Below are positions 5,670 to 49,572 of a stretch of DNA of 64,000 bases, in pieces. Position numbers and translations under genes: made by a program. The stretch spans positions 6,780 through 70,779 of the forward strand of contig RCNO01000003.1 of NCBI GenBank assembly GCA_003731685.1, written 5' to 3'. Origin of the DNA: Bacteroidetes/Chlorobi group bacterium MS-B_bin-24 (GTDB taxonomy: Bacteria > Bacteroidota > Ignavibacteria > Kapaibacteriales > UBA2268). Position 1 is the first letter of the stretch; every line of letters begins with the position of its first letter. The notes under the pieces are model-generated. The model searched no databases, was not told the origin of the DNA, and saw only the letters and a list, made by a program, of their open reading frames with translations.

Positions 5670-8600
5670 ATGCAAGCAAAGCCAATTCCAAAAAAAGGTT
5701 TTCGGAAAGTTATGATTAAGCTGGCTTCCCCGGATTCTATACTTGAACGCTCTCGCGGGGAAGTTACCAGACCAGAAACTATTAACTATCGTTCTTATCG
5801 ACCAGAAAAAGATGGTTTATTTTGTGAGAGAATTTTTGGTCCCGTAAAAGACTGGGAATGTGCCTGCGGGAAATATAAACGAATTCGATACAAGGGAATA
5901 ATTTGCGACCGTTGCGGTGTCGAGGTTACTCAAAAGACCGTTCGCCGAGAGCGGATGGGTCGTATTATGCTTGCAACTCCTGTTGTGCACATTTGGTTTT
6001 TGAGAAGTTTGCCCAGCAAAATTGGTGCGGTTCTTGGTTTATCGACCAAAGATTTGGAAAAAATAACATATTACGAAACTTATGTAGTTGTTAATCCCGG
6101 CCGGTTCCCATTCAAAAAATACGACCTTCTTTCGGATGTAGAATACCAGAACATTATGAGCCAAATTCCCGAAGAGGAGAAGTATCTCGATGATGACGAC
6201 CCGAACAAATTCGTTGCTTTAATGGGCGGACAGGCTATTAAAGAGCTATTGAAGCGGGTCGACGTCGAAGATGAATATTACCGATTACGTCAGGAGATGC
6301 GAGATGAGACCAACCTACAGAAGAAACAGGAATTGTTGAAGCGACTTAAGGTTTTGGAGGCATTTCTACCGGACGAAAAGACTGACGAACCAATCAACAA
6401 GCCCGAGTGGATGGTGCTCGATGTTATCCCGGTTATACCGCCAGACCTTCGACCTTTGATACCACTCGAAGGCGGTAGGTTTGCTGCTTCGGATTTGAAC
6501 GATTTGTATCGCCGGGTTATTATTCGCAACAATAGATTAAAGCGATTAATTGATATAAAAGCTCCGGGCGTAATTATCCGAAACGAACAGAGGATGTTGC
6601 AAGAAAGCGTTGATGCTTTGTTCGATAGTTCACGGAAAGCCACGAAGACCGAAGCTACTCGACCATTAAAATCCCTTGCCGACGCATTGAAAGGCAAACA
6701 AGGACGGTTCCGTCAGAATTTGCTTGGTAAGCGTGTGGATTATTCTGGCCGTTCGGTTATCGTTGTTGGTCCAGAATTGAAGATGCACGAGTGTGGCTTG
6801 CCGAAAGATATGGCTGTCGAATTGTTTAAGCCATTTATTATTAGGAAGTTAATCGAGCGGGGCTATGTCAAAACCGTTAAAAGTGCCAAGAAAATGGTCG
6901 AGCAAAAACGGACCGAGGTTTGGGATATCCTTGAGAAGGTAATCGAGAACCATCCCGTATTACTCAACCGCGCTCCGACACTTCACAGAGTTGGTATTCA
7001 GGCATTCCAACCAAGACTAATCGAAGGAAAAGCAATTCAACTACATCCGTTGGTTTGTACAGCGTTCAACGCAGACTTCGACGGCGACCAAATGGCTGTG
7101 CACGTTCCGCTAAGTTGGGAGGCACAGCTCGAGGCTTTGCTTTTGATGCTGGCTCCGCATAACATTATGCATACTCAAAATGGCGACCCAATTGCTGTTC
7201 CTTCGCAAGATATGGTCTTGGGAATCTATTACATTACAAAAGCCAAATCGGGCGTAAAAGGCGAAGGCAAGTTGTTTAATTCTCCCGAGGAAGTGATTAT
7301 TGCATACAATAACGGCGCAGTTGACTTGCATGCTAAAATCAAAGTGAGAATGGACGGCAAATATGTCGAAACTACAACTGGCAGAATTTTGTTTAACCAG
7401 ATTGTGCCGAAAGAACTTGGATTTATCAATGAATTGTTGACAAAGAAGAGATTGCGCCAAATAATTGGTTATTGCTTCCGAATTGCAGGGCTGGCTACAA
7501 CAGTTGAATTTTTGGACAACTTGAAGCAAATGGGATTTGAATTTGCAACGCGTGGCGGTTTGTCGGTGGGTATTCCCGATGTAATTGTGCCAAAGGAGAA
7601 GTACGAAATTATCGAGCAAGCCCAAAAGCGCGTCGATGAAATCGAAAATGCTTACCAAAATGGTGTCATTAGCTTTGGCGAAAGATATAATAAGATTATC
7701 GATACTTGGTCGACAGCAACAAATCGTGTTGCGGATAAGTTGTATAATGAAATTGCCAAAGTATATCAAGGGTTCAATACATTCTGGATGATGCTTGATT
7801 CGCAGGCTCGTGGTTCCAAAGAGCAGATACGACAGCTTGCTGGGATGCGAGGTTTGATGGCAAAGCCTCGTAAATCGTTGACTGGTTCAACTGGTGAATT
7901 AATTGAGAACCCGATTCTTTCTAATTTCAAAGAAGGATTGTCGGTGCTTGAATATTTCATTTCCACACACGGTGCAAGAAAGGGACTTGCCGACACCGCT
8001 TTGAAGACCGCCGATGCTGGTTATCTAACTCGACGCTTGCACGATGTTGCCCAAGATATTATCATTACCGAAGTAGACTGTGGCACAATTCGTGGTGTTA
8101 ACACTACTGCTTTGAAGGAAGGCGAAGAGGTTAAAGAAACTTTGTACGAAAGAATTCTTGGTAGGGTTGCACTTTGGGATGTTGTTAATCCGTTGACCGG
8201 CGAGGTCCTTGTCAAGGCTGGAGAATTGATTGATGAGGAGATTGCACAAAAGATAGAAGAATCACCAGTCGAAGAAGTTACAATCCGAAGCGTTTTGACT
8301 TGCGAATCACGTCACGGAGTTTGTGCAAAATGTTACGGACGGAATCTTGCAACAGGTAAACTTGTGGATGTTGGCGAAGCAGTTGGGACAATTGCGTCGC
8401 AGTCAATTGGCGAGCCGGGTACTCAGCTGACCTTGAGAACATTCCACACTGGTGGAACTGCATTACTGATAACGAGCCAGTCCTCTGTAACAGCAAAATT
8501 CGATGGTGTAGTGCAATTCGAAAATGTCCGAATTGTAACCTACGAGGAAGATGAAGAGGAAGTTCAAGTTGTTGTGTCCCGAAGTGGTGTTATAAATATC

Positions 8601-35081: not shown

Positions 35082-36341
35082 ATGGAAAAAATGAGAATGT
35101 TTTTTAGACTTTGGAGTCTAGTTTTTATACTTTTGCTATATCCTTTGCTGAGTTATTCTGCTCGGACTTATTTGATTTCAAATGAAAAGGAACTAATAAA
35201 CACATTGCGAATAGTCGCCGATGGAGATTCCATTGTTGTTAAGCCGGGGAGGTACTTAGTTGATAGTTTGGTGATTCGCAGGTCAATTAGTTTGATAGGG
35301 ATAAACTTTCCGGAGATAATTGGAAACAAAAGGGATGAAGTGATAACTATCCGTGCCAATGGGGTACTGGTTAAAGGGTTAAAAGTCAAAAATGCGGGTA
35401 TTAGTTTTCTTCGCGAAAATGTCGCAATAAGATTCGAAGAAGTTAATGGGGGCGTTGCAGAAGGCAATATTTTGGACAGCAATTTTTTTGGCATTTATAT
35501 TTCAAAATCTCAAAACTGTGTTGTAAAGAACAATGTGATAGTTGCTTATAACAGAACCGAAACATTTTCTGGGAACGGCATTCATCTTTGGTATTCAAAA
35601 AATATTACTATTATAGGGAATAAGATTCAAGGACATAGAGATGGAATTTACTTTGAGTTTGTTAAACATGCGCTTGTAAAAGGGAATTATAGCAAAGATA
35701 ATCTTCGCTATGGTCTTCACTTTATGTTTTCCGATAGTTGTGGTTACATCGAAAACACTTTCGAAAGCAACGGTGCTGGGATTGCGGTTATGTATACCAA
35801 AAATGTTACAATTAAATCGAATCGTTTTATCAATAATTGGGGTTCCGCTTCTTTTGGTTTGTTGCTTAAAGAGTTGACCAACTGTTTGATAGAGAACAAT
35901 CATTTCGAGAAAAATACTAATGGACTTTATTTGGAAGGTTCAAATCGTATTACAGTGAAACGGAACAATTTTATTCGGAATGGTTGGGCTATCAAATTGA
36001 TGGAAAATTCAATGGAAAATTACTTTACCGATAATAACTTTGTTGGAAATTCATTTGATGTGCTTTCGAACAACAGAACTACTTACAATACTTTTTTTAG
36101 AAACTATTGGAGTCGATATACAGGATTCGACTTGAATCGTGATGGTTATGGAGATGTTCCCTATCGCCCTGTCTCCTTTTTCTCAATTATAGTCGAAAGA
36201 CAACCTAATGCTTTGGTTTTGTTGCATAGCCTTTTTGTGGGTTTACTTAACTTTGCCGAAAGTATTATTCCATCGCTAACGCCAATGAATTTATTTGACC
36301 CAGAACCAAGAATTAAGAGTTTTCCAATAAGTTTATCTTAA
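35082..36341 (+). CDS. nosD: Periplasmic parallel beta-helix protein NosD
   Basis: 419 aa with a signal peptide and repeated beta-helix turns carrying NosD-like blocks (GNGIHLWYS, RDGIYFEF, RYGLHFMFS, GAGIAVMYT, DLNRDGYGDVPYRP). Confidence 0.88.
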   Translation: MEKMRMFFRLWSLVFILLLYPLLSYSARTYLISNEKELINTLRIVADGDSIVVKPGRYLVDSLVIRRSISLIGINFPEIIGNKRDEVITIRANGVLVKGLKVKNAGISFLRENVAIRFEEVNGGVAEGNILDSNFFGIYISKSQNCVVKNNVIVAYNRTETFSGNGIHLWYSKNITIIGNKIQGHRDGIYFEFVKHALVKGNYSKDNLRYGLHFMFSDSCGYIENTFESNGAGIAVMYTKNVTIKSNRFINNWGSASFGLLLKELTNCLIENNHFEKNTNGLYLEGSNRITVKRNNFIRNGWAIKLMENSMENYFTDNNFVGNSFDVLSNNRTTYNTFFRNYWSRYTGFDLNRDGYGDVPYRPVSFFSIIVERQPNALVLLHSLFVGLLNFAESIIPSLTPMNLFDPEPRIKSFPISLS

Positions 36342-36352
36342 TTAATTGAACA

Positions 36353-37072
36353 ATGGTTGAAATTCAAAATTTATCGAAAAGATTTGGGAGATTTGAAGTT
36401 TTAAAAGAGATTAACGCAAATTTTAAAAGCGGGAAAATTACGGCAATTGCTGGTCCTAACGGTTCGGGTAAGACTACGCTTATCAAAATAATTTTAGGTT
36501 TGGTGAAAGCCGATAGTGGGAAAGTGTATGTCTTCGGTGAACCTATTAACGGCGTTTGTAGTTATCGCCAAAAAATAGGATATATGCCCCAAATTGCCAA
36601 TTACCCCGAAAATTTGACCATTTCTGATATCATTAAACTCATTAAGGAACTAAGAAATGTTCGTGGGAATATCGAGGAAAAATTCATTAGAGAATTCAAT
36701 TTAGAGAACGATTTGAACAAGCCAATAAGGACACTTTCGGGTGGTACGCGACAAAAAGTTGGGGCAGTTCTCTCCTTGATGTTTGACCCAAGTGTTTTAA
36801 TCTTCGATGAACCAACTGTTGGGATGGACCCTGTTGTGAGCAGCCGATTCAAAGAAATTATGCTCGAAGAAAAACAAAAGGGCAAAGTCATAATTATTAC
36901 CTCCCACGTTATGAGCGAAATCGAGGAGCTTGCCGACGAAATTCTCTTTCTTTTGAATGGGAAGGTATATTTCAGTGGCTTAATCAGCGAATTGTTGAAT
37001 GCTCAAAACGAGACTAAATTGGAGCGTGCCGTTGCCAAGATTTTAGAAAATCAAACAATTTTGGATGTTTAA
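36353..37072 (+). CDS. nosF: ABC transporter ATP-binding protein NosF
   Basis: Walker A GPNGSGKTT, signature LSGGTRQKV and Walker B LIFDEPT. It directly follows nosD. Confidence 0.88.
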   Translation: MVEIQNLSKRFGRFEVLKEINANFKSGKITAIAGPNGSGKTTLIKIILGLVKADSGKVYVFGEPINGVCSYRQKIGYMPQIANYPENLTISDIIKLIKELRNVRGNIEEKFIREFNLENDLNKPIRTLSGGTRQKVGAVLSLMFDPSVLIFDEPTVGMDPVVSSRFKEIMLEEKQKGKVIIITSHVMSEIEELADEILFLLNGKVYFSGLISELLNAQNETKLERAVAKILENQTILDV

Positions 37073-37087
37073 CAATTCAGGTGTTCT

Positions 37088-37513
37088 ATGATACACATTA
37101 AATTTTTCGATTGGTTTGAAAATCATATTAATATTGCCTATTCGCTTATAAGAATTTTTCTCGGCTTTGCGTTGTGTATACGAGGTCTTTTGTTTATGTT
37201 TGACCCACAGACATTGACCAATCTTGCTGGCGAACCCCAAAATTTTTGGATTTTTGCTTATACCTCTGTGGGGCATCTTATTGGTGGTTTTCTTCTAGGA
37301 ATTGGCTGGTTCGTTCGGCTTGGTGCTTTAATCCAAATACCAATATTACTTGGAGCAGTTTTTACTATCCACTTACGTGTAGGACTGCTAACCTCTGGAC
37401 AATCGCTTGAACTTTCGGTGCTTGTTCTTTTTCTCCTGGTTGTTTTCTTTTTGTTTGGTGATGGTGGCATAACAATCAAAAGCATTTTCAAGAAAAGCTC
37501 TGTTACCAATTAA
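37088..37513 (+). CDS. Small four-helix membrane protein, DoxX-like
   Basis: 141 aa with four hydrophobic segments and a pattern (LIRIFLGFALCIRG...HLIGGFLLGIG...) that resembles the DoxX/DoxD family. The assignment is by eye only. Confidence 0.5.
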   Translation: MIHIKFFDWFENHINIAYSLIRIFLGFALCIRGLLFMFDPQTLTNLAGEPQNFWIFAYTSVGHLIGGFLLGIGWFVRLGALIQIPILLGAVFTIHLRVGLLTSGQSLELSVLVLFLLVVFFLFGDGGITIKSIFKKSSVTN

Positions 37514-37518
37514 ATTCA

Positions 37519-37911
37519 ATGCGGATTGCCTTTATTACATATGTGTTAGGGGTTCTATCATATTTTATAACTATAAATGCGAATCTTGTCGCATACTTTG
37601 AATATTTGGTCAATTATGATTTCATAGTGCAAAACCTTTGTGTGCAAAAAGATGAACCTATCAACACTTGTCACGGACATTGCCATTTGCGAAAAAATTT
37701 GGAGAAAGTAGAGGAAAATAATGGAACGAAAGAAAGAAAAAATGTAGAGTTGAAAACTAATGTCAAGATAGAAAATCATCGTTTAACATCAACAGTTTGC
37801 AATTTAATACCGAACATTACTTCCCTGATTTTTTACAATTTTAATGTCAATTACTTGATTAAACCTTTTGTTGAAAAAAACGATCCCCCTCCAAGGCAGT
37901 TTTCATTTTGA
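37519..37911 (+). CDS. Hypothetical N-terminally anchored protein with Cys/His cluster
   Basis: 130 aa with one N-terminal hydrophobic helix, then NLCVQKDEPINTCHGHCHLRKNL and a C-terminal DPPP. It starts 5 nt after the DoxX-like gene and lies upstream of the receptor gene. Confidence 0.55.
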   Translation: MRIAFITYVLGVLSYFITINANLVAYFEYLVNYDFIVQNLCVQKDEPINTCHGHCHLRKNLEKVEENNGTKERKNVELKTNVKIENHRLTSTVCNLIPNITSLIFYNFNVNYLIKPFVEKNDPPPRQFSF

Positions 37912-38017
37912 GTTAAAATTCTAACTCACATATTTAGCGTTTTTCTGTTGGGATAACATTTGAATTATTTTTAAAAACTTATGTAAATTTTTTGATAAAC
38001 AATAAAAGGGGGATGTT

Positions 38018-39856
38018 ATGAAAAAATTATTAATTTTTCTTTTCCTTCTTCCATTTGTGTCTTTTGGTGAGGCAAAAGATACTTTAAAGACATATAAAAC
38101 AAGCGAAGTGGAAATTATATCTCGTCGTGAAATCCAGTTTGTAAAACTTCAAGATTATGGTCCGGGTTATAGCAGCGAACTATTAAATCGGAATGGTTAC
38201 CAACTGATTCGCCGCGGATTGAGCTTTACGCAAGACATTTATTCCGATGGGTTTAAGAAAGGTGATATTCGAGTTGTTATTGATGGGGAATATTATCATA
38301 ATGCTTGTCCAAATCGTATGGATGCCCCTGCAACAAGAGTGAATCCGGTCGACTTGTCGGAGGTTGAGATAACCAAAAGTACGAGTTTATTAAGCACTGG
38401 CTTATACGGAAAAGTTGAGTACCATAGAACAAAACTGGAGAAGCCGCTTAGGTTCAAATCCTTTGTCAGCGGTCAAGTCGGTGCAAATTCAGAATACGAT
38501 GTAAGTTTTTCTGCCCAATCACATTGGACAAGTATAAGTGCCCGATTTTCTCAAGGGATTCCTTATAAGAATGCAAAAGGTAATAGTTTTAGGGACCTTT
38601 ATAGGTATAAAGATAATTATAAATTTTCATTTGGAAACATTGGGATTAGAAAACTTTTACCGGAATTAAATTTAGAAGCAGGCTTTAATTTTTCCTACGC
38701 AAAAGATATTTCCTTCCCCTATTTGATGATGGATGAAAGAAGCAGCAAAGTATTTAGTGGTTATTTACAATATAAAGGATATAAGGCATATTTGAATTAT
38801 ACTGACCATTTAATGAATGATGGATTGCGAGAGAATGCAATGGGTATGGAAACACGGGCTAAAAACATTACCACTGGAATTAAAGGCGATTTCTTTGAAT
38901 TTGTCTATCGGAATTGGAATGCGGATAATGTTATAATGCAAATTTCAAACAAAATGCTACCAAATGTCGACCAGTTTGCATTAAATCTTGCTTCCGATTA
39001 TTCACTTGGCTTTGTGAAGTTATTTTTTAAAGGGGGAGTGAATTATCTTCGCTATAAAGACGAATCGCGAAAGGCATTTTTCGAGTCGCTTTATCCCGAT
39101 GCAAAGACAGGACGAATTTTCATTTCTGGAGGTCTTAGCGCAATAATTGGGCATCAATTCTCCGAAAAACTTCTGTGGTCAGTTCTTCCAGAAATTGCAA
39201 CAGATGCGCCAGAGCCTGAAATGCTTTTTCTTGCACTCGTTCGGCCTATGAACAAACCCGATTGGAGCGGTAATCCAACTCTGAAACAACCGATAAGAGC
39301 TACTTTGCGAACATCGTTGCAAACAGATTTCTTAACCCTTGAGCTTTTTGGAAATTATGTTTTGAATTACGTTGATATTGTAGTTAAAAAGAAAGAAATG
39401 AAAAATGCAATGACCTACAACAACGTAAATGCAATCATAGCTGGGGCAAATTTGAAATTTAACTATAAGTGGCTGACCACAGAACTTTCCTACCTTTGGG
39501 GAGAAAATGAGGACAATAAGAAACCGCTTGCCGAAATTGTGCCACTTTCAATTTCTTCCAAAGTGGAAATTCCGATTGTCGAAAATCTTTCCGTCTTGCT
39601 AACCCACAGGTGGGAAAACGCACAAAAGAGAGTTAATCCCGATTTGAAGGAATTTTCCACTCCGGCTTGGAACACACTGGGTTTGGGGCTTGTTTACTCG
39701 TTTAGTTGGATACATTTCGATTTACAAATACAAAATCTTCTCAATCATAATTATTACAGATTTCTTTCGTTTTCGAGGAACCCATTTTCCGCTGGTTTGC
39801 CAGTTTATGAGCCGGGTCGTGTATTTATGCTAACAGTTTATTTCAATAAGAATTAG
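38018..39856 (+). CDS. TonB-dependent receptor-like outer-membrane protein (OprC/NosA-like candidate copper channel)
   Basis: 612 aa with a signal peptide and a plug-like N-terminal region (...LIRRGLSFTQDIYSDGFKKGDIRVVIDGEYY...). The remainder is rich in alternating aromatic beta-strand patterns. It contains C97-PNR-M101 and H264-L-M266. Confidence 0.65.
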   Translation: MKKLLIFLFLLPFVSFGEAKDTLKTYKTSEVEIISRREIQFVKLQDYGPGYSSELLNRNGYQLIRRGLSFTQDIYSDGFKKGDIRVVIDGEYYHNACPNRMDAPATRVNPVDLSEVEITKSTSLLSTGLYGKVEYHRTKLEKPLRFKSFVSGQVGANSEYDVSFSAQSHWTSISARFSQGIPYKNAKGNSFRDLYRYKDNYKFSFGNIGIRKLLPELNLEAGFNFSYAKDISFPYLMMDERSSKVFSGYLQYKGYKAYLNYTDHLMNDGLRENAMGMETRAKNITTGIKGDFFEFVYRNWNADNVIMQISNKMLPNVDQFALNLASDYSLGFVKLFFKGGVNYLRYKDESRKAFFESLYPDAKTGRIFISGGLSAIIGHQFSEKLLWSVLPEIATDAPEPEMLFLALVRPMNKPDWSGNPTLKQPIRATLRTSLQTDFLTLELFGNYVLNYVDIVVKKKEMKNAMTYNNVNAIIAGANLKFNYKWLTTELSYLWGENEDNKKPLAEIVPLSISSKVEIPIVENLSVLLTHRWENAQKRVNPDLKEFSTPAWNTLGLGLVYSFSWIHFDLQIQNLLNHNYYRFLSFSRNPFSAGLPVYEPGRVFMLTVYFNKN

Positions 39857-39945
39857 TTTTTTTTACTTCGGGAACGGAAATTCAAACAGCGAAGAAGGGG
39901 ACAATCCCGTTTATTTCAATAAGAATTAGTTTTTTTTACTTCGGG
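39836..39945 (+). repeat. Perfect 37-bp direct repeat (two copies, 73-bp period) duplicating the receptor gene 3' end
   Basis: GTTTATTTCAATAAGAATTAGTTTTTTTTACTTCGGG is read at 39836-39872 and again at 39909-39945. Copy 1 contains the last 6 codons plus the stop codon of the 38018-39856 gene. Confidence 0.9.
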
Positions 39946-39975
39946 GCTTGCCAATTCTTGGCGAGCCCCATTTTG
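39943..39975 (+). terminator. Rho-independent terminator
   Basis: 12-bp stem GGGGCTTGCCAA (39943-39954) / TTGGCGAGCCCC (39958-39969) with one G-U pair and a 3-nt loop, then ATTTTG. Confidence 0.7.
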
Positions 39976-40014
39976 CGATTTATACCTTAAATTTGTTGTT
40001 TTATCGAGGCAAAA

Positions 40015-40803
40015 ATGAATTTTGTTTTTAAGATTTTGAAGATAGAATTAAATAATGTAATCAAAAGCCGTTGGTTTTTCTTCTTTTTTGGCTTTTTCTT
40101 TCTTGTCTCCTATGCATTGTTATCGTTTGAGGACAATATTCAGAAAAGTTTATTAAGTCTTTTAAACTTGGTGATTTACCTTGCACCATTAATAACGCTG
40201 ATTTTTGGGACTATGTATTTTTACAATTCCCAGCCTTACATCGAGATGATGCTTAGCCAACCCATTCCCCGAGCCTCATTGTTTGTTGGCTTATATCTTG
40301 GAACTTCAATCCCGTTAATGTTGAGTTTTATTTTGGGGCTATTCCTTCCTTTTTTATTGTTTTCGGATATTTTAGCTTACTTAAATCTTTTCTTAATCCT
40401 ATTATTAATTTTAATTCTTCTTACGCTTTCTTTTGTATCAATTGCTTTTTGGATATCAACGGAAATCGGTGATAAAGTAAAAGGTTTGAGTCTTTCGATT
40501 TTGATTTGGCTGGTTTTTGGCATAGCATTCGATGGTTTAATTCTTTTTATTACTTTTCTTTTCTCGGATTATCCTTTGGAGAAAATCTTAATTGGCTTAA
40601 CTGTTTTAAATCCAATTAACCTTTCTCGCACTATTTTTGTTCTTAATTTTGAAATCTCCGCGCTAATGGGTATCACTGGTGCAGTATTTAAAAAGTTTTT
40701 TGGCAGTTCATTGGGAACTTTTGTCTCTTTGGGCTCAATGTTGTTTTGGATTGTAATCCCGTTTCTTTTTGGGTTAATTGGCTTTAAACGAAAAGATTTT
40801 TAA
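40015..40803 (+). CDS. nosY: ABC-2 type permease NosY
   Basis: 262 aa with about 6 hydrophobic helices and a NosY-like N-terminus (ILKIELNNVIKSRWFFFF). It lies in the nos cluster but is separated from nosF by 2.9 kb. Confidence 0.75.
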   Translation: MNFVFKILKIELNNVIKSRWFFFFFGFFFLVSYALLSFEDNIQKSLLSLLNLVIYLAPLITLIFGTMYFYNSQPYIEMMLSQPIPRASLFVGLYLGTSIPLMLSFILGLFLPFLLFSDILAYLNLFLILLLILILLTLSFVSIAFWISTEIGDKVKGLSLSILIWLVFGIAFDGLILFITFLFSDYPLEKILIGLTVLNPINLSRTIFVLNFEISALMGITGAVFKKFFGSSLGTFVSLGSMLFWIVIPFLFGLIGFKRKDF

Positions 40804-40875
40804 CTATATTTTTTAAAAATATTTTCCCTCCTGCTACGAAATTCTTTTTTCCTTTGGATTTTTTATTTTTGAATT

Positions 40876-41994
40876 ATGCTTTGCGTTAAGGATTTGTCTT
40901 TGCAGGAAATTGAAGCATTTGTGAAGGATTTGGGCTTTGAACCATTCCGAGCCAAGCAGATTTTTTATGGTATATATGCTAATCGTGTCGAAAATTTCGA
41001 AAGTATCACCACTTTGCCCCGTGAATTAAAAAATATCCTTTCGGAGAAATTCTACATAAGCAGTATTAACTCGGCAAAATACGAAAAGGCAACAGATGGT
41101 ACAATAAAGTTTTTGTTTTCCTTAAGGAATGGTTCCGCTGTCGAAAGCGTGTTTATCCCTTGGGATTATGGCTTAAAGGAGCGAAGGACTTTGTGCGTTT
41201 CTTCGCAAGTTGGATGTGCATTGGGATGTGCATTTTGTGCTACGGGGAAACTTGGGCTCGAGCGAAATCTTTCGGCTGGGGAAATCATCGACCAAATCTT
41301 TGAATGCGAAAAGATAACAGGCGAACGGCTGACCAATATCGTATTTATGGGTATGGGCGAGCCATTACAGAATTTTCAAAATCTCGTTAAGGCTTTGGAA
41401 ATTCTAACGAATGATTTTGTGAAGTTATTCAGTAGAAGGAATATTACCGTTTCGACTGCTGGAATTGTCCCCAAAATATACGATTTGGCGAAAATCGAGA
41501 AGCCAGTGAAACTTGCGGTCTCTTTGCACTCGGTTTTCGACGATGTTCGACAGAAGTTGATGCCAGTTGCTCGGAAATGGAGTTTGAAGGAGGTTCGCGA
41601 AGCCGTGGTCGAATATTATCGAATTACGCGAATCCCAATAACTTACGAATACATTTTGTTCGAAGGGCTAAACGACGGCGAAGAAGATGCTCGCCGTTTA
41701 GCAAAATTTGCGAAGGCTGTACCCTCGAAAGTGAATCTTATACCTTTCCACCGAATAGATTTTATGCCGTTGGATGATTTCGCAAGGAGCCTAAAGCCCG
41801 CAAGCAAAGAACAAATACTGAAATTTAAATCTTTGCTCAACTCATTGGGCGTCCGAGCGTTTATTCGCTCATCAAGTGGATATGAAATAAACGGGGCTTG
41901 CGGACAACTTGCCTTTGCAAATTTGGGAAACAAAAACGAGTGGCTGAAAAATTTTGTTAAATTGCAAGGTAATTCGTTTCAGAAAATTGAATAG
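40876..41994 (+). CDS. rlmN: Radical SAM 23S rRNA/tRNA adenine-C2 methyltransferase RlmN
   Basis: 372 aa with the radical SAM cluster motif CALGCAFCATG. RlmN-like blocks are present (FRAKQIFYGIY, NIVFMGMGEPLQN, GACGQL). Confidence 0.9.
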   Translation: MLCVKDLSLQEIEAFVKDLGFEPFRAKQIFYGIYANRVENFESITTLPRELKNILSEKFYISSINSAKYEKATDGTIKFLFSLRNGSAVESVFIPWDYGLKERRTLCVSSQVGCALGCAFCATGKLGLERNLSAGEIIDQIFECEKITGERLTNIVFMGMGEPLQNFQNLVKALEILTNDFVKLFSRRNITVSTAGIVPKIYDLAKIEKPVKLAVSLHSVFDDVRQKLMPVARKWSLKEVREAVVEYYRITRIPITYEYILFEGLNDGEEDARRLAKFAKAVPSKVNLIPFHRIDFMPLDDFARSLKPASKEQILKFKSLLNSLGVRAFIRSSSGYEINGACGQLAFANLGNKNEWLKNFVKLQGNSFQKIE

Positions 41995-42006
41995 TATGAG
42001 GAAGAT

Positions 42007-43257
42007 ATGGTGATAAAAAAACTTAAAATATCGAACTTTAAAAGTTTCGATGAGTTAGAAATCGAATTGAGTAGGTTCAATGTATTAATTGGTGCCAATG
42101 CATCAGGGAAGTCAAATTTTACACAAATTTTTAGGTTCATAAGAGATATAATATCTCAGGGCTTGAACAATGCTATTTCTTTGCAAGGTGGCATAGAGTA
42201 TTTTAGGAATATTAACATAGGTTCGGCAAAAAATTTTTCATTAGAAATTGTTTCGGATGAGAAATATGGAATTGGAATAAGAGGAGAAGACAAAAAGGGT
42301 TATTTTCTAAAAACATTTGAAACCGCTTATAAATTGGCGTTAGAGTTCAAAAAGAAGGGGGAAAAATTTGGAATTGCTGATGATGTGTTGAATCAAAAGT
42401 TCGAAATTTTTGAAGTGGAGTTTAATGAAGAAAACTTCAAAGAAAAAGGGAAAGTTGGGGCTGGTGAATTATTTATCTCGAATGTGGGAGGGAATCTGAA
42501 AGTTGATTTCAACCTTCCCAATGGAATAATAATTGATGAAAATTTCATACTACCACCATTTATAAAAGAACGGGGTTTAAAATCCTTTCAAATTCTTCTT
42601 GAAATAACCCCTTTTCTTATGGTTCCACCCTTTTTCAAAGACATATTGATTTGCGATTTTGACCCCAAATTCCCCAAAAAGGCAGCACCAATAAGTGGAA
42701 AAGCAGAGATTGAAGAGGATGGAAGCAATCTTGCTATTGTTCTAAAAAATATACTTGAGAATAAAGACAAGAAAAGAAAACTATTCAATTTATTAAAAGA
42801 CTTGCTACCTTTTATTGATGATATTGATGTAGAAAAATTTGCCGACAAAACTTTGCTGTTTAAACTAAGGGAAGTTTATTCAACAAAAAACCGCTATATA
42901 CCAGCATCTTTGATTTCTGATGGCACTATACATTTAACAGCTTTAATTTTAGCTTTATATTTTGAAAAAAATAGTTTAACAATAATTGAAGAGCCAGAAA
43001 GAAATATACATCCGTATCTTATCTCCAAGGTTGTTGATATGATGATGGACGCTTCGCGAAAAAAGCAAATCATTGTTACAACCCACAACCCTGAAATAGT
43101 TAAATATGCAGGTTTGGAGAATATTTTGCTAATTTCTCGGAATAATGAAGGCTTTTCTGTTATCTTTAAACCCATCGAAAAAGAACAGGTTAAGATATTT
43201 TTACAAAATGAATTAGGGATAGATGATTTATATGTACAAAATCTTTTGGAGTTGTAA
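42007..43257 (+). CDS. ABC/SMC-fold ATPase (AAA_21/AAA_15-like), candidate defence ATPase
   Basis: 416 aa with N-terminal KISNFKSFDE...VLIGANASGKSN (Walker A), SDGT signature-like, LTIIEEPERNIHP (Walker B/D-loop) and VTTHNP (H-loop). There are long K/E-rich insertions between the lobes. Confidence 0.75.
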   Translation: MVIKKLKISNFKSFDELEIELSRFNVLIGANASGKSNFTQIFRFIRDIISQGLNNAISLQGGIEYFRNINIGSAKNFSLEIVSDEKYGIGIRGEDKKGYFLKTFETAYKLALEFKKKGEKFGIADDVLNQKFEIFEVEFNEENFKEKGKVGAGELFISNVGGNLKVDFNLPNGIIIDENFILPPFIKERGLKSFQILLEITPFLMVPPFFKDILICDFDPKFPKKAAPISGKAEIEEDGSNLAIVLKNILENKDKKRKLFNLLKDLLPFIDDIDVEKFADKTLLFKLREVYSTKNRYIPASLISDGTIHLTALILALYFEKNSLTIIEEPERNIHPYLISKVVDMMMDASRKKQIIVTTHNPEIVKYAGLENILLISRNNEGFSVIFKPIEKEQVKIFLQNELGIDDLYVQNLLEL

Positions 43258-43259
43258 TA

Positions 43260-43799
43260 ATGAGCCCCAAACAGCTGTTTATTTTTGTCGAAGGAGCCAA
43301 CGATGAAAGATTTTTTGAAAGAGTTGTAAAACCGAAATTACAGCAAAGATACAATGTAATAATCATTCATACTTATGCAGAAAGAAAGGATAAATACAAA
43401 AGGATTAATGCTTTCCTTCAAAGTATTGCGTCTTTAAAGGCTGAATATATTTTTGTTACAGACATAGACAATTCTCCGTGTATTACTGCCAAAAAAGAAG
43501 AGATTAGAAACAGAATTCGCGATATTGACGCAAATCGAATTTTGGTTGTTGTTAAGGAAATAGAAAGTTGGTATTTTGCAGGTTTAGATAATATTAGAAG
43601 TAAGAAGTTAAAAATTCGTCGCAACTTTGAAAATACTAATAATCTAACAAAAGAACAATTTAAAGCCTTAATTCCAAAAAGTTTTGATTCTGAAATAGAT
43701 TTTATGATAGAAATTCTAAATCTTTTTTCAATTGAAATTGCGAAGAACAAGAATGATTCTTTTAAGTATTTTCTCGAAAAATTTAATATTCAAGCTTAA
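43260..43799 (+). CDS. Small Toprim-like protein (DUF4276/RloB/AriB-like pattern)
   Basis: 179 aa. It has LFIFVEGANDERFFERV (Toprim Glu at codon 11, nt 43290-43292), FVTDIDN (DxD, nt 43461-43469) and VVVKEIESWYFAG. The ATG lies 2 nt after the ATPase stop (TAATAATG). Confidence 0.6.
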   Translation: MSPKQLFIFVEGANDERFFERVVKPKLQQRYNVIIIHTYAERKDKYKRINAFLQSIASLKAEYIFVTDIDNSPCITAKKEEIRNRIRDIDANRILVVVKEIESWYFAGLDNIRSKKLKIRRNFENTNNLTKEQFKALIPKSFDSEIDFMIEILNLFSIEIAKNKNDSFKYFLEKFNIQA

Positions 43800-43897
43800 A
43801 GAGAGTTGCTCCTTTTCCGATGTGAATTTCGCGATAAAATCTCTGGAAACTTTTAAAGTTAACTTTTCGTTTATTTCTAATTGTTAGTGGTTGTTTT

Positions 43898-44803
43898 ATG
43901 AGCATTAAACCATTGTTTCTGCTTTTGTTTATTTTGGTTGCTTTTGTTCAGGCGGTTGCTGGGACGAAGCCGAAAGAACTTCAACTCGGCGAATGTTATG
44001 TGATTCGTTTGACTAATGGCGATGAGCTGGAAGGCAAGGTCGATTCTTTTATTTCCGACCCTGAAGAAGGCGATGGAATAAAGTTCGACTCCGAAATTGG
44101 GATTGCCAAAATCTATTTCTCTCAAATTTCGGAAATCGTTCAATGTAGCAAGTATTATCGCAATGGTCATAAGTATTTTTTGCTTCCGACAGCAATTGGA
44201 ATTGGGAACAATCATTTCATTGGGATGCTGGAGATGTTCTTTTTATATGGCGGCATCGGAATTACGGATTATTTTTCTGTCATAGCGGGCAGGTCTTTTC
44301 TGCCCGGTGCTTATTCAAACCAGCAATTATCTTTGATTAACATAAAGGGCAGTTTGCCCTCAATTGATTTTGAGGACATTCCCCGAAACCTTTATCTTGC
44401 CTTTGGTGGGAATCTTGGCTTTGCTAACAACAATAACAAGTTCATTCATTTCTACGGCGTTGCGACTGCTTTGTTTTACAAAACCAGCCTTTCGCTTTCT
44501 GTTTTTTATAAAGCTGGGAGCGAGGATTATTATTTGGTGCGATATGGTATAAATTCTGTCGATGTTAATTATCCCGATGGCTCTTTTGGTGTTGCGTTTG
44601 GAGTTGATACGAAAATACCGCACCATAAAGGATTGCATTTTATTGCAGAGTTGTGGAATATCGATGTCCAAAGACCTACACACTCGGGATTGTTTATGGG
44701 AATTCGTTTGGCGAACACATCAGTTTGTTTCGATTTTGGGTTAGGCTGGTTCACTCAGCCTTTTGTTGTTCCTATTGCCAACTTTTCGTGGAGTCCGTTC
44801 TGA
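43898..44803 (+). CDS. Hypothetical secreted / outer-membrane protein
   Basis: 301 aa with a signal peptide (LFLLLFILVAFVQAVAG), an aromatic-rich alternating pattern and a C-terminal ...NFSWSPF ending in Phe, as in many beta-barrel OMPs. Confidence 0.5.
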   Translation: MSIKPLFLLLFILVAFVQAVAGTKPKELQLGECYVIRLTNGDELEGKVDSFISDPEEGDGIKFDSEIGIAKIYFSQISEIVQCSKYYRNGHKYFLLPTAIGIGNNHFIGMLEMFFLYGGIGITDYFSVIAGRSFLPGAYSNQQLSLINIKGSLPSIDFEDIPRNLYLAFGGNLGFANNNNKFIHFYGVATALFYKTSLSLSVFYKAGSEDYYLVRYGINSVDVNYPDGSFGVAFGVDTKIPHHKGLHFIAELWNIDVQRPTHSGLFMGIRLANTSVCFDFGLGWFTQPFVVPIANFSWSPF

Positions 44804-49350: not shown

Positions 49351-49434
49351 GCGGAAGTGGCGGAATTGGCAGACGCACCATCTTGAGGGGGTGGCGCCCG
49401 GTAGGGCGTGCGGGTTCAAGTCCCGCCTTCCGCA
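49351..49434 (+). tRNA. tRNA-Leu (anticodon GAG), CCA not encoded
   Basis: My manual fold gives acceptor GCGGAAG/CTTCCGC, anticodon stem CCATC/GGTGG with loop TTGAGGG (GAG), a long variable arm (CGCCCGGTAGGGCG) and T arm GCGGG-TTCAAGT-CCCGC. The discriminator is A and is followed by CAG. Confidence 0.88.
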
Positions 49435-49572
49435 CAGGTGTTCGGTGCTACCGTAACTTTTGGATAATACGATTGGAACTGCTCGATTGTTCATCCTAAG
49501 CCCGATGATTTGAATTTGATAAAAAAACGAGGAGTTTTCCTCGGTGTATGTTTAATAAATTCGGGGGTTGTT

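Follow-up and report, generated by a model that had tools for sequence, protein, structure and literature searches.

What kind of system is encoded by two markedly A+T-rich genes that sit between rlmN and the gene for an envelope protein in Bacteroidetes/Chlorobi group bacterium MS-B_bin-24? We have analysed here a window of 64,000 nucleotides (nt) from this genome (contig RCNO01000003.1), to which all coordinates refer unless another contig is named. Gene A (42007-43257) encodes a 416-residue ATPase with an ABC/SMC-type fold, and gene B (43260-43799) encodes a 179-residue protein that is a predicted metal-dependent nuclease effector; both lie on the forward strand and both begin with ATG. The two open reading frames (ORFs) are separated by only 2 nt, with the junction TAA-TA-ATG, and the original prediction, which was made from the sequence of the window, is borne out in its coordinates, lengths and junction. 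We propose, with a probability of about 0.62, that the pair constitutes a self-contained HEC-01-type module, gained by horizontal transfer, in which an OLD-family nuclease would be split into two polypeptides and to which we assign an anti-phage role by analogy.

HEC-01 (Hma-embedded candidate 01) is an entry of PADLOC-DB v2 in which an ABC ATPase is accompanied by a TOPRIM protein (Payne et al., bioRxiv 10.1101/2024.01.29.577857). Our assignment is based on matches to the PADLOC library of hidden Markov models together with gene order, and not on the thresholds and system rules of the PADLOC pipeline. In that library the best match of A is to HEC-01A (PDLC04176, 3.9e-49, residues 1-414 against profile positions 1-365 of 371) and the best match of B is to HEC-01B (PDLC04191, 2e-10, residues 44-122), with mad3/mad4, AriA, AbiLi, GajA and Old all ranking below these two. 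Profile E-values of 1e-30 to 1e-49 are beyond chance, and all 27 of the B homologues examined match HEC-01B models, the best of them at 2.4e-11. The arrangement is also that of HEC-01, with an ABC ATPase of ~400 residues followed on the same strand by an adjacent TOPRIM/DUF4276-like protein of about 180-190 residues, and B carries the same set of motifs as the HEC-01B protein of Pseudomonas agarici, namely hhhhE..., DxD..P.C and ExE.[WF]Y.A. A can be aligned from end to end with its P. agarici counterpart, the sequences being those of supplementary table 2, at ~23% identity (hhalign probability 98.7%, E 1.5e-16) whereas B aligns only around its motifs, and because of this we regard the pair as a probable divergent member of the HEC-01 kind; a member of the cluster from which the HEC-01B model was built would be expected to score far higher than 2e-10. 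There are differences too, in that the pair described here lies outside any Hma or other defence system, and the clade to which it belongs is found mostly in anaerobic or thermophilic bacteria and in archaea rather than in Proteobacteria. The suggestion that the pair could be an uncharacterised variant thus holds insofar as it is divergent and mechanistically unstudied, although the type itself has a catalogue entry already, and two tests of it have had mixed outcomes.

Protein A has the features expected of an active ATPase. It matches the Pfam families AAA_21 (7.8e-30), AAA_15 (4.8e-20) and SMC_N (6.4e-14), and in an alignment of 28 homologues its nucleotide-binding motifs are invariant: the Walker A or P-loop motif GANASGKS (residues 29-36, 42091-42114) at G29, N31, A32, G34 and K35, the glutamine Q60, the SDGT element that resembles an ABC signature (residues 304-307, 42916-42927), the Walker B motif LTIIEEPE (residues 324-331, 42976-42999), which is of the OLD-family 'EEPE' form and invariant from I326 to E331, and the H-loop histidine H360 within VTTHNP (43084-43086). 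Because all of these motifs are conserved, we take A to be a catalytically intact ABC ATPase, and its modelled fold places it in the OLD/Gabija/Septu branch. The AlphaFold model (mean predicted local distance difference test score, pLDDT, 78; predicted template modelling score 0.80) has Thermus scotoductus OLD (TsOLD) as its best match in the PDB (2.3e-12), followed by GajA, PtuA and the ATPases of retrons Eco8 and Eco7, and the heads of SMC and Rad50 rank below these defence ATPases.

Two segments of A are of particular relevance to how it might work. Residues 71-215 (42217-42651) form an insert domain that in the model is built of long antiparallel beta-strands, up to 20 residues in length (77-83, 87-92, 97-115, 120-139, 144-160 and 163-169, as assigned by DSSP), and short helices. 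Conservation is lower in this domain than anywhere else in the protein, with a mean majority fraction of 0.67 compared with 0.84-0.87 in the ATPase lobes, and most likely the domain is a sensor of an infection cue or a region that binds a partner. Immediately beyond it, residues 221-240 (42667-42726) constitute the most conserved stretch of the ATPase family (majority fraction 0.94, consensus DPKxPKKATPITGKAELEEDGSNL) and yet have the lowest confidence in the model (pLDDT 36-51). Since the highest conservation coincides with the lowest model confidence, this segment could be one that becomes ordered only when bound to a partner.

The assignment of B is less direct, as its Pfam matches all fall below threshold (DUF4276 1.8e-6, DUF3226 1.3e-3 and OLD-like_TOPRIM 0.028); the match to DUF4276 (PF14103) covers nearly the whole profile but reaches only 28.8 bits against a gathering cut-off of 30.2. 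Among 27 relatives, 12 match DUF4276 (at E <= 0.01), 11 match DUF3226 and seven match OLD-like_TOPRIM. The structural model is a confident one (pLDDT 89.8) and consists of a Toprim core (residues 1-100) and a C-terminal helical domain (residues 102-174), with the core having the topology b1-a1-b2-a2-b3-a3-b4 (strands 5-10, 33-38, 62-69 and 94-98; helices 13-27, 45-58 and 75-85). Its sole clear match in the PDB is 6NK8_A, the C-terminal Toprim and helical region of Burkholderia pseudomallei OLD (BpOLD; probability 1.0, template modelling scores 0.50/0.47, E 1.4e-3), and profile and model together point to an OLD-like Toprim nuclease. We note that comparison of the B profile with solved structures also returns a TIR domain (SIGIRR, E 0.6), which we reject as being at chance level, and that low-probability TIR matches in the fold search probably reflect a common three-layer alpha/beta architecture.

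The residues conserved in B mirror the pattern of a two-metal Toprim nuclease. In 27 homologues with 48-65% identity, the invariant positions are E11, G12, D15, D68, C74, K79, E102, W104, Y105 and K131, and several of these fall in three recognisable motifs, FIFVEGANDERFF (E11, G12 and D15), FVTDIDN (D68) and KEIESWYFAG (E102, W104 and Y105). The first Toprim motif, EGxxD (43290-43304), places E11 directly after strand 5-10; the Dx[D/N] motif (D68-I-D70, 43461-43469) has its invariant D68 at the end of strand 62-69; and the acidic pair E100-I-E102 (43557-43565) follows directly after the fourth strand, with E100 conserved in at least 90% of homologues. BpOLD has a two-metal machinery made up of E400, E404, D455, D457, T506, E508 and K562, in which T506 and E508 are ligands of metal B (PMC6755086), and the conserved residues of B parallel the E400/E404/D455/E508/K562 pattern in their order along the chain. 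By this pattern E11 and D15 appear to correspond to E400 and E404, and E100 and E102 resemble T506 and E508 in position. K131, which lies in the helical domain (43650-43652), is by position the candidate counterpart of the catalytic K562, with K164 (conserved in at least 90%) as an alternative lysine for this role. Position 70 is aspartate in B but aspartate or asparagine in the family at large (consensus TDIN), and because the second aspartate of the BpOLD DxD motif reaches the metal only through a water molecule (PMC6755086), an asparagine at this position is plausibly tolerated.

These analyses bear on several features that were first read from the letters of the window. The Walker A, SDGT, Walker B and H-loop elements are all present and invariant. 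The conserved glutamate, DxD and E-x-E-x-W patch of B stand insofar as E11, D68, E102 and W104 are invariant, but D70 is not conserved. A search for Toprim-related families, which had been suggested as a check, yields DUF4276, DUF3226, OLD-like_TOPRIM and HEC-01B, with the BpOLD Toprim as the top structural match, and conservation of the catalytic residues, suggested likewise, is seen for E11 and D68.

The genes for A and B travel together. An A homologue lies directly upstream of B and on the same strand in 82 of 83 distinct loci, the exception being a truncated B, and the distance from the A stop codon to the B start codon has a median of 2 nt and lies between -10 and +20 nt at 94% of loci. 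The identities of A and B homologues to the proteins of the window are correlated (r = 0.78, n = 74), and an all-against-all comparison of neighbours finds no third gene that recurs across lineages, with recurrence only within lineages. From the A-then-B order, the short gap, the correlated identities and the lack of such a third gene, we conclude that the pair behaves as a single co-inherited unit. In the window itself, the sequence GAGGAAG is situated just 5' of the A start codon, which is 12 nt past the rlmN stop codon. A scan of 40700-44100 found no terminator-like site and no above-chance promoter signal between rlmN, A and B, and no terminator 3' of B, with counts that are at the level of shuffled sequence and hence uninformative. 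As no such signal separates them, it is plausible that rlmN, A and B share one transcript.

The family is large but its distribution is patchy and crosses domains. A profile of B retrieves 1,363 cluster representatives at E <= 1e-3 among 1.84 billion, 1,113 at <= 1e-10 and 662 at <= 1e-30, and the top 150 are all standalone proteins of about 170-250 residues, almost all of them 166-200. At least 199 of 185,579 GTDB species representatives (about 0.1%) encode a B relative with 39-58% identity to B, this count being a minimum, as a single peptide pattern was used for the scan. Among the bacteria that carry it are Bacteroidales, Atribacterota, Dehalococcoidia, Caldilineaceae, Planctomycetota, Latescibacterota, Syntrophales, Thermotogae and Halanaerobium, and archaeal carriers include Bathyarchaeia, Methanosarcinales, Methanoperedens, Thermococci, Archaeoglobaceae and Methanotorris igneus. 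The pair is present on one of 2.9 million viral contigs (IMG/VR UViG_3300011829_000020, 6730-8522, locus L098; 38-39% identity), a genuine phage genome in which it lies between Erf/DnaD-like replication genes and a group of genes for a radical-SAM protein, a regulator, the large terminase and the portal; this slot between replication and packaging modules is a typical accessory position. A population variant of B (L007, 331-870) differs from it at 12 non-synonymous and 10 synonymous sites, and the resulting ratio of non-synonymous to synonymous substitution rates (dN/dS) of about 0.27 is weak support for purifying selection. The synonymous rate (dS) of B in this comparison is 0.105, relative to 0.05-0.06 for the adjacent ORF301 and kdsB, which with only 22 differences may be noise.

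The neighbours of the pair vary from one lineage to another. In 35 diverse loci, the 140 nearest neighbours fall into 206 Pfam families, each with no more than four occurrences. Defence-type domains are a minority of these (N6_N4_Mtase 3, Mrr_cat 3, HSDR_N 2, nSTAND1 2 and mad3/mad8/mad2 3-4), and loci with defence neighbours include those with a type I restriction-modification (R-M) cluster (L010), a type IIG enzyme (L024) and a mad3-like gene (L045), with other loci of the pair lying among plain housekeeping genes. Genes of ~1,080 codons adjoin the pair in three lineages, and one of them encodes a type IIG R-M enzyme, with the other two having no match in the defence library. Residence of homologous pairs in defence islands, raised originally as a check, is therefore found at a minority of loci but neither at most loci nor in this genome, and the pair is not tied to housekeeping genes either, being a lineage-specific insertion here with variable neighbours elsewhere. 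The same neighbours are retained across species in Latescibacterota (L037, L038, L041 and L070), Caldilineaceae (L065-L091) and Syntrophales (L043, L049, L057 and L092), and in Planctomycetota too its position is syntenic, so that once acquired the pair can persist by vertical inheritance for long; in Syntrophales a 524-residue YjeF-type NAD(P)H-hydrate repair enzyme is encoded directly downstream of it.

How the pair came to lie beside rlmN is evident from comparison with sister genomes. The three closest relatives (L095, L096 and L097, with RlmN identities of 86%, 78% and 69%; the nearest RlmN relatives are labelled Kapaibacteria) all have rlmN followed directly by an ORF301 homologue and the same downstream genes, without A or B. 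Nucleotide similarity to the three ends at 41922-41924 and restarts at 43974-43982, and because synteny breaks and resumes around the pair in this way we conclude that it was acquired horizontally, as an insertion of ~1.97 kb (41925-43897) that comprises a new rlmN 3' tail, gene A, gene B and a 98-nt spacer, the right edge being placed only to within 43800-43897. These empty sites were found through RlmN homologues, as a search of metagenome contigs for ORF301 relatives returned one same-species fragment only. The inserted segment (1,973 nt) has 30.6% G+C against a window mean of 40.7% (standard deviation 3.2), so that no other stretch of this size in the window has a lower G+C content, and it falls within the lowest 0.08% of intervals of the same length. 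The genes themselves have 31.3% (A) and 28.5% (B) G+C, compared with 41.9% for rlmN and 40.8% for the downstream gene, and the contrast in composition that had been noticed from sampled lines is thus confirmed across the whole segment. No integrase is encoded within 10 kb on either side of the pair, no direct repeats flank the insert and no tRNA marks the site, in keeping with the earlier remark that neither an integrase nor repeats identify a mobile island.

The insertion has also altered its upstream neighbour. It gave RlmN a new C-terminal tail in place of ~23 non-conserved residues, with the GACGQLAFAN motif retained. The last ~23 codons of rlmN (41925-41994; …NLGNKNEWLKNFVKLQGNSFQKIE) are without an equivalent in any of the three sister genomes and fall inside the low-G+C insert. 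A perfect 15-nt inverted repeat is also present, with one arm at 42034-42048 (AACTTTAAAAGTTTC), in the codons of the invariant NFKSF motif of A, and the other at 43846-43860 (GAAACTTTTAAAGTT), 47 nt past the B stop codon. It exceeds all repeats in 100 shuffles, but we reject it as a feature of the family since a comparable repeat occurs in only four of 76 related loci, which is the chance rate, and it is probably fortuitous or specific to this species.

The resemblance to characterised systems suggests a plausible mode of action. The beta-rich variable insert of A may sense an infection cue or bind a partner, and B may be an OLD-like Toprim nuclease of minimal size that has a two-metal site, translated from the transcript of A. 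By analogy with PARIS, Gabija and OLD, A would form a complex with B and hold it inactive, until a trigger of phage origin, along with the binding or hydrolysis of ATP, released or activated it. B would then cleave nucleic acid and halt phage replication, possibly at a cost to the cell, and its substrate could be either DNA, as for OLD and GajA, or RNA, as for AriB and RNase M5.

In several known systems an ABC ATPase is combined with a TOPRIM protein, and a published list of them includes MADS3-4, AbiL, OLD, Gabija and PARIS (PMC11464382). An architectural parallel is found in PARIS (AriA/AriB; OLD class 4), in which an OLD-like system is likewise divided between two co-evolving genes, one for an ABC ATPase and one for a Toprim nuclease, with a variable region of the ATPase as the presumed sensor of the trigger. 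PARIS is rejected as an assignment since B has no DUF4435 or AriB match at E <= 1 and is only 179 residues long, whereas AriB is a DUF4435 protein of ~35 kDa; among the relatives of B, one of 27 matches DUF4435 (0.0058) and three of 27 match AriB (at 2.5e-4 or weaker). A does match AriA (PDLC02980, 1e-27, residues 24-365 against profile positions 1-303 of 304), but over the same stretch as AAA_21, and we regard this match as apparently generic and weaker than that to HEC-01A; AriA is not among the sequence matches of A to solved structures at E <= 1e-5. PARIS is usually carried by satellites or phages, in contrast to the single viral contig that bears a member of the clade described here. AbiL (AbiLi/AbiLii) is also a two-gene abortive-infection system with an ABC ATPase and an RloB-like protein of the Toprim superfamily, and A matches AbiLi at 5e-28, over part of the profile only, but B matches neither AbiLii nor RloB at E <= 1 and AbiL is rejected accordingly. 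The description of the pair as split-OLD/AbiL/PARIS-like thus stands for a split-OLD-like ABC ATPase with a small Toprim protein and does not stand for PARIS or AbiL in the strict sense, with B matching neither partner family.

A single-chain OLD or a Gabija system is rejected as well, since there are two separate ORFs and no UvrD-like GajB helicase gene adjoins them. Nonetheless, OLD proteins of classes 1 and 2 and GajA provide the nearest solved structures of both halves (TsOLD and GajA for A, BpOLD for B) and share with the pair the EEPE form of Walker B and, in the order of residues along the chain, an EGxxD ... DxD ... acidic pair ... Lys series like that of a two-metal Toprim site. OLD and GajA have a helical dimerisation region, unlike the insert of A. 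They differ from the pair in having ATPase and Toprim in one polypeptide, in place of two genes, and the insert of A is beta-rich in the model and the helical domain of B is shorter. A pairing of the RecF/RecR kind is rejected because the match of A to TIGR00611 reaches 29.5 bits where the cut-off is 172, and because the pair is missing from the three syntenic sister genomes.

A number of observations weigh against the proposal that the pair is an HEC-01-type defence module. The match of B to the HEC-01B models is weak and partial, and against the P. agarici HEC-01B protein it aligns over only 52 columns, around DxD and ExE.[WF]Y.A, with an hhalign probability of 41%. In E. coli the P. agarici HEC-01 conferred no protection (bioRxiv 10.1101/2024.01.29.577857), and although a later study reports that an HEC-01 from a cold seep made E. 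coli B resistant to one or more of T4, T5 and T7 (PMC12881386), that protection was modest. Here and at most other loci, the pair has ordinary metabolic or envelope genes as neighbours rather than defence islands; its synteny is stable in Caldilineaceae, Latescibacterota and Syntrophales, whereas defence genes with a fast turnover are less typically so; and tblastn finds B in none of 50,697 phage records and 72,556 plasmid records. On the other side, the authors of the HEC-01 study describe its metal site as conserved with that of BpOLD (bioRxiv 10.1101/2024.01.29.577857). The pair can therefore be called a defence candidate, as was originally suggested, on the basis of its HEC-01A and HEC-01B matches, with the qualification that tests of HEC-01 homologues have been mixed.

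There are several other models to consider. The clade, with about 1,100-1,360 clusters at 50% identity that are nearly all standalone, might represent a distinct class of split OLD-family systems native to archaea and to thermophilic and anaerobic bacteria, with a minimal 175-residue Toprim and helical nuclease, an ABC ATPase with a beta-sheet insert, and a trigger and substrate of its own (e.g. RNA). The B clade does lie between the Pfam families DUF4276, DUF3226 and OLD-like_TOPRIM, and to our knowledge almost no defence system has been mechanistically characterised in these archaea and bacteria, but we consider a separate class doubtful. Somewhat more unlikely is that the pair is a selfish, toxin-antitoxin-like addiction cassette, with B a toxic nuclease and A its ATP-dependent neutraliser, kept because its loss is harmful and conferring no net protection from phages. 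The tight two-gene layout with probable translational coupling, the spread into unrelated housekeeping contexts with no mobility genes, the stable retention in some lineages, the negative result with the first HEC-01 tested and even the Pfam title of AAA_21 ('putative AbiEii toxin, Type IV TA system') fit such a cassette. A 416-residue ABC ATPase with a variable insert would, on the other hand, be costly for a mere antitoxin, one HEC-01 did protect, and the characterised relatives with the same architecture (OLD, Gabija, PARIS, Septu and retron Eco8) are all defence systems; we also note that addiction and abortive-infection defence can both hold.

DUF4276 has been recognised as belonging to the Toprim superfamily and as equivalent to the MADS protein Mad4 (PMC12065111), and MADS, like the pair, joins an AAA_21-type ABC ATPase (Mad3) to a DUF4276 Toprim protein (Mad4). 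This raises the question of whether A and B are a stranded piece of a larger methylation-associated or restriction system whose partners are missing, and which would be inactive or only partly functional here. A matches the NCBIfam model antiphage_MADS3 (NF047739) at 1.2e-39 and PADLOC mad3 at 1e-26, B matches mad4 at 3.7e-6, 16 of 27 B homologues also match mad4, HEC-01 was first found embedded in Hma systems, and at some related loci the adjoining genes are of type I or type IIG R-M systems or resemble mad3. MADS comprises several genes, a methyltransferase among them, however, and we reject it as an assignment given that the MADS3 match reaches only 136.7 bits, far under the equivalog cut-off of 420, that the mad4 match of B is weak, and that no methyltransferase or other mad gene is found within 10 kb. 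Most of the 35 sampled loci also have no such neighbour, and no third gene accompanies the pair across lineages. The catalytic residues are invariant in at least 27 diverse standalone pairs and the within-population dN/dS, although derived from small counts, is about 0.27, from which we argue that the pair works by itself; a stranded fragment is accordingly an improbable explanation. The least probable of those considered is an accessory module for DNA repair or recombination that acts on host DNA damage in the manner of RecF with RecR or a Rad50-type ATPase with its nuclease. The SMC_N match of A, its weak matches to RecF, Rad50 and SMC N-terminal profiles, the SMC and Rad50 heads among its fold matches and the housekeeping surroundings of several loci point in this direction, but the RecF match is confined to residues 3-38, defence ATPases rank ahead of SMC and Rad50 heads, and a pair that is encoded by so small a fraction of species, is missing from the nearest sister genomes and is foreign in composition to its host genome makes a poor candidate for a repair function.

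The genome is present in hot-spring metagenomes. The gene order around the locus is nos cluster, rlmN, A, B, ORF301, kdsB, heptosyltransferase and YkuD, all of which lie within 10 kb of the pair, and for the species, of which 24 contigs were covered, six places have the identical order and most of the others are classed as similar. The nitrous-oxide reductase accessory cluster upstream (about 35082-40803) includes genes for a NosD-like protein (35082-36341), a NosF-like ABC ATPase (36353-37072) and a NosY-like ABC-2 permease (40015-40803), and is broken up by genes for a DoxX protein (37088-37513), a 130-residue ORF and an unannotated 612-residue protein (38018-39856), an arrangement that is also present in the closest relative, L095. 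ORF301 (43898-44803) is a lineage-specific envelope protein with an N-terminus resembling a signal peptide and no Pfam hit on record, and is kept between rlmN and kdsB in all of the Kapaibacteria-like relatives examined. The sole RNA gene detected in the window, that for tRNA-Leu(GAG) (49351-49435), lies at a distance of 5.5 kb from the insert, with which it has no association.

The architecture, likely logic and family assignment of this pair are foreseen by published work on OLD, Gabija, PARIS, MADS and HEC-01, and it does not define a new category. What is new is modest: a divergent and compact clade that spans bacteria and archaea, an insertion site with empty-site controls, and the Dx[D/N] variation in the Toprim motif. 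The locus offers a clean natural example of HEC-01, a candidate type that is catalogued but mechanistically unstudied, with the empty site present in sister genomes. If members of this clade do function in defence, they would provide a very small split-OLD system (416 and 179 residues) in which to dissect how an ABC ATPase gates a Toprim nuclease, and would extend tested defence systems into hot-spring and anaerobic lineages.

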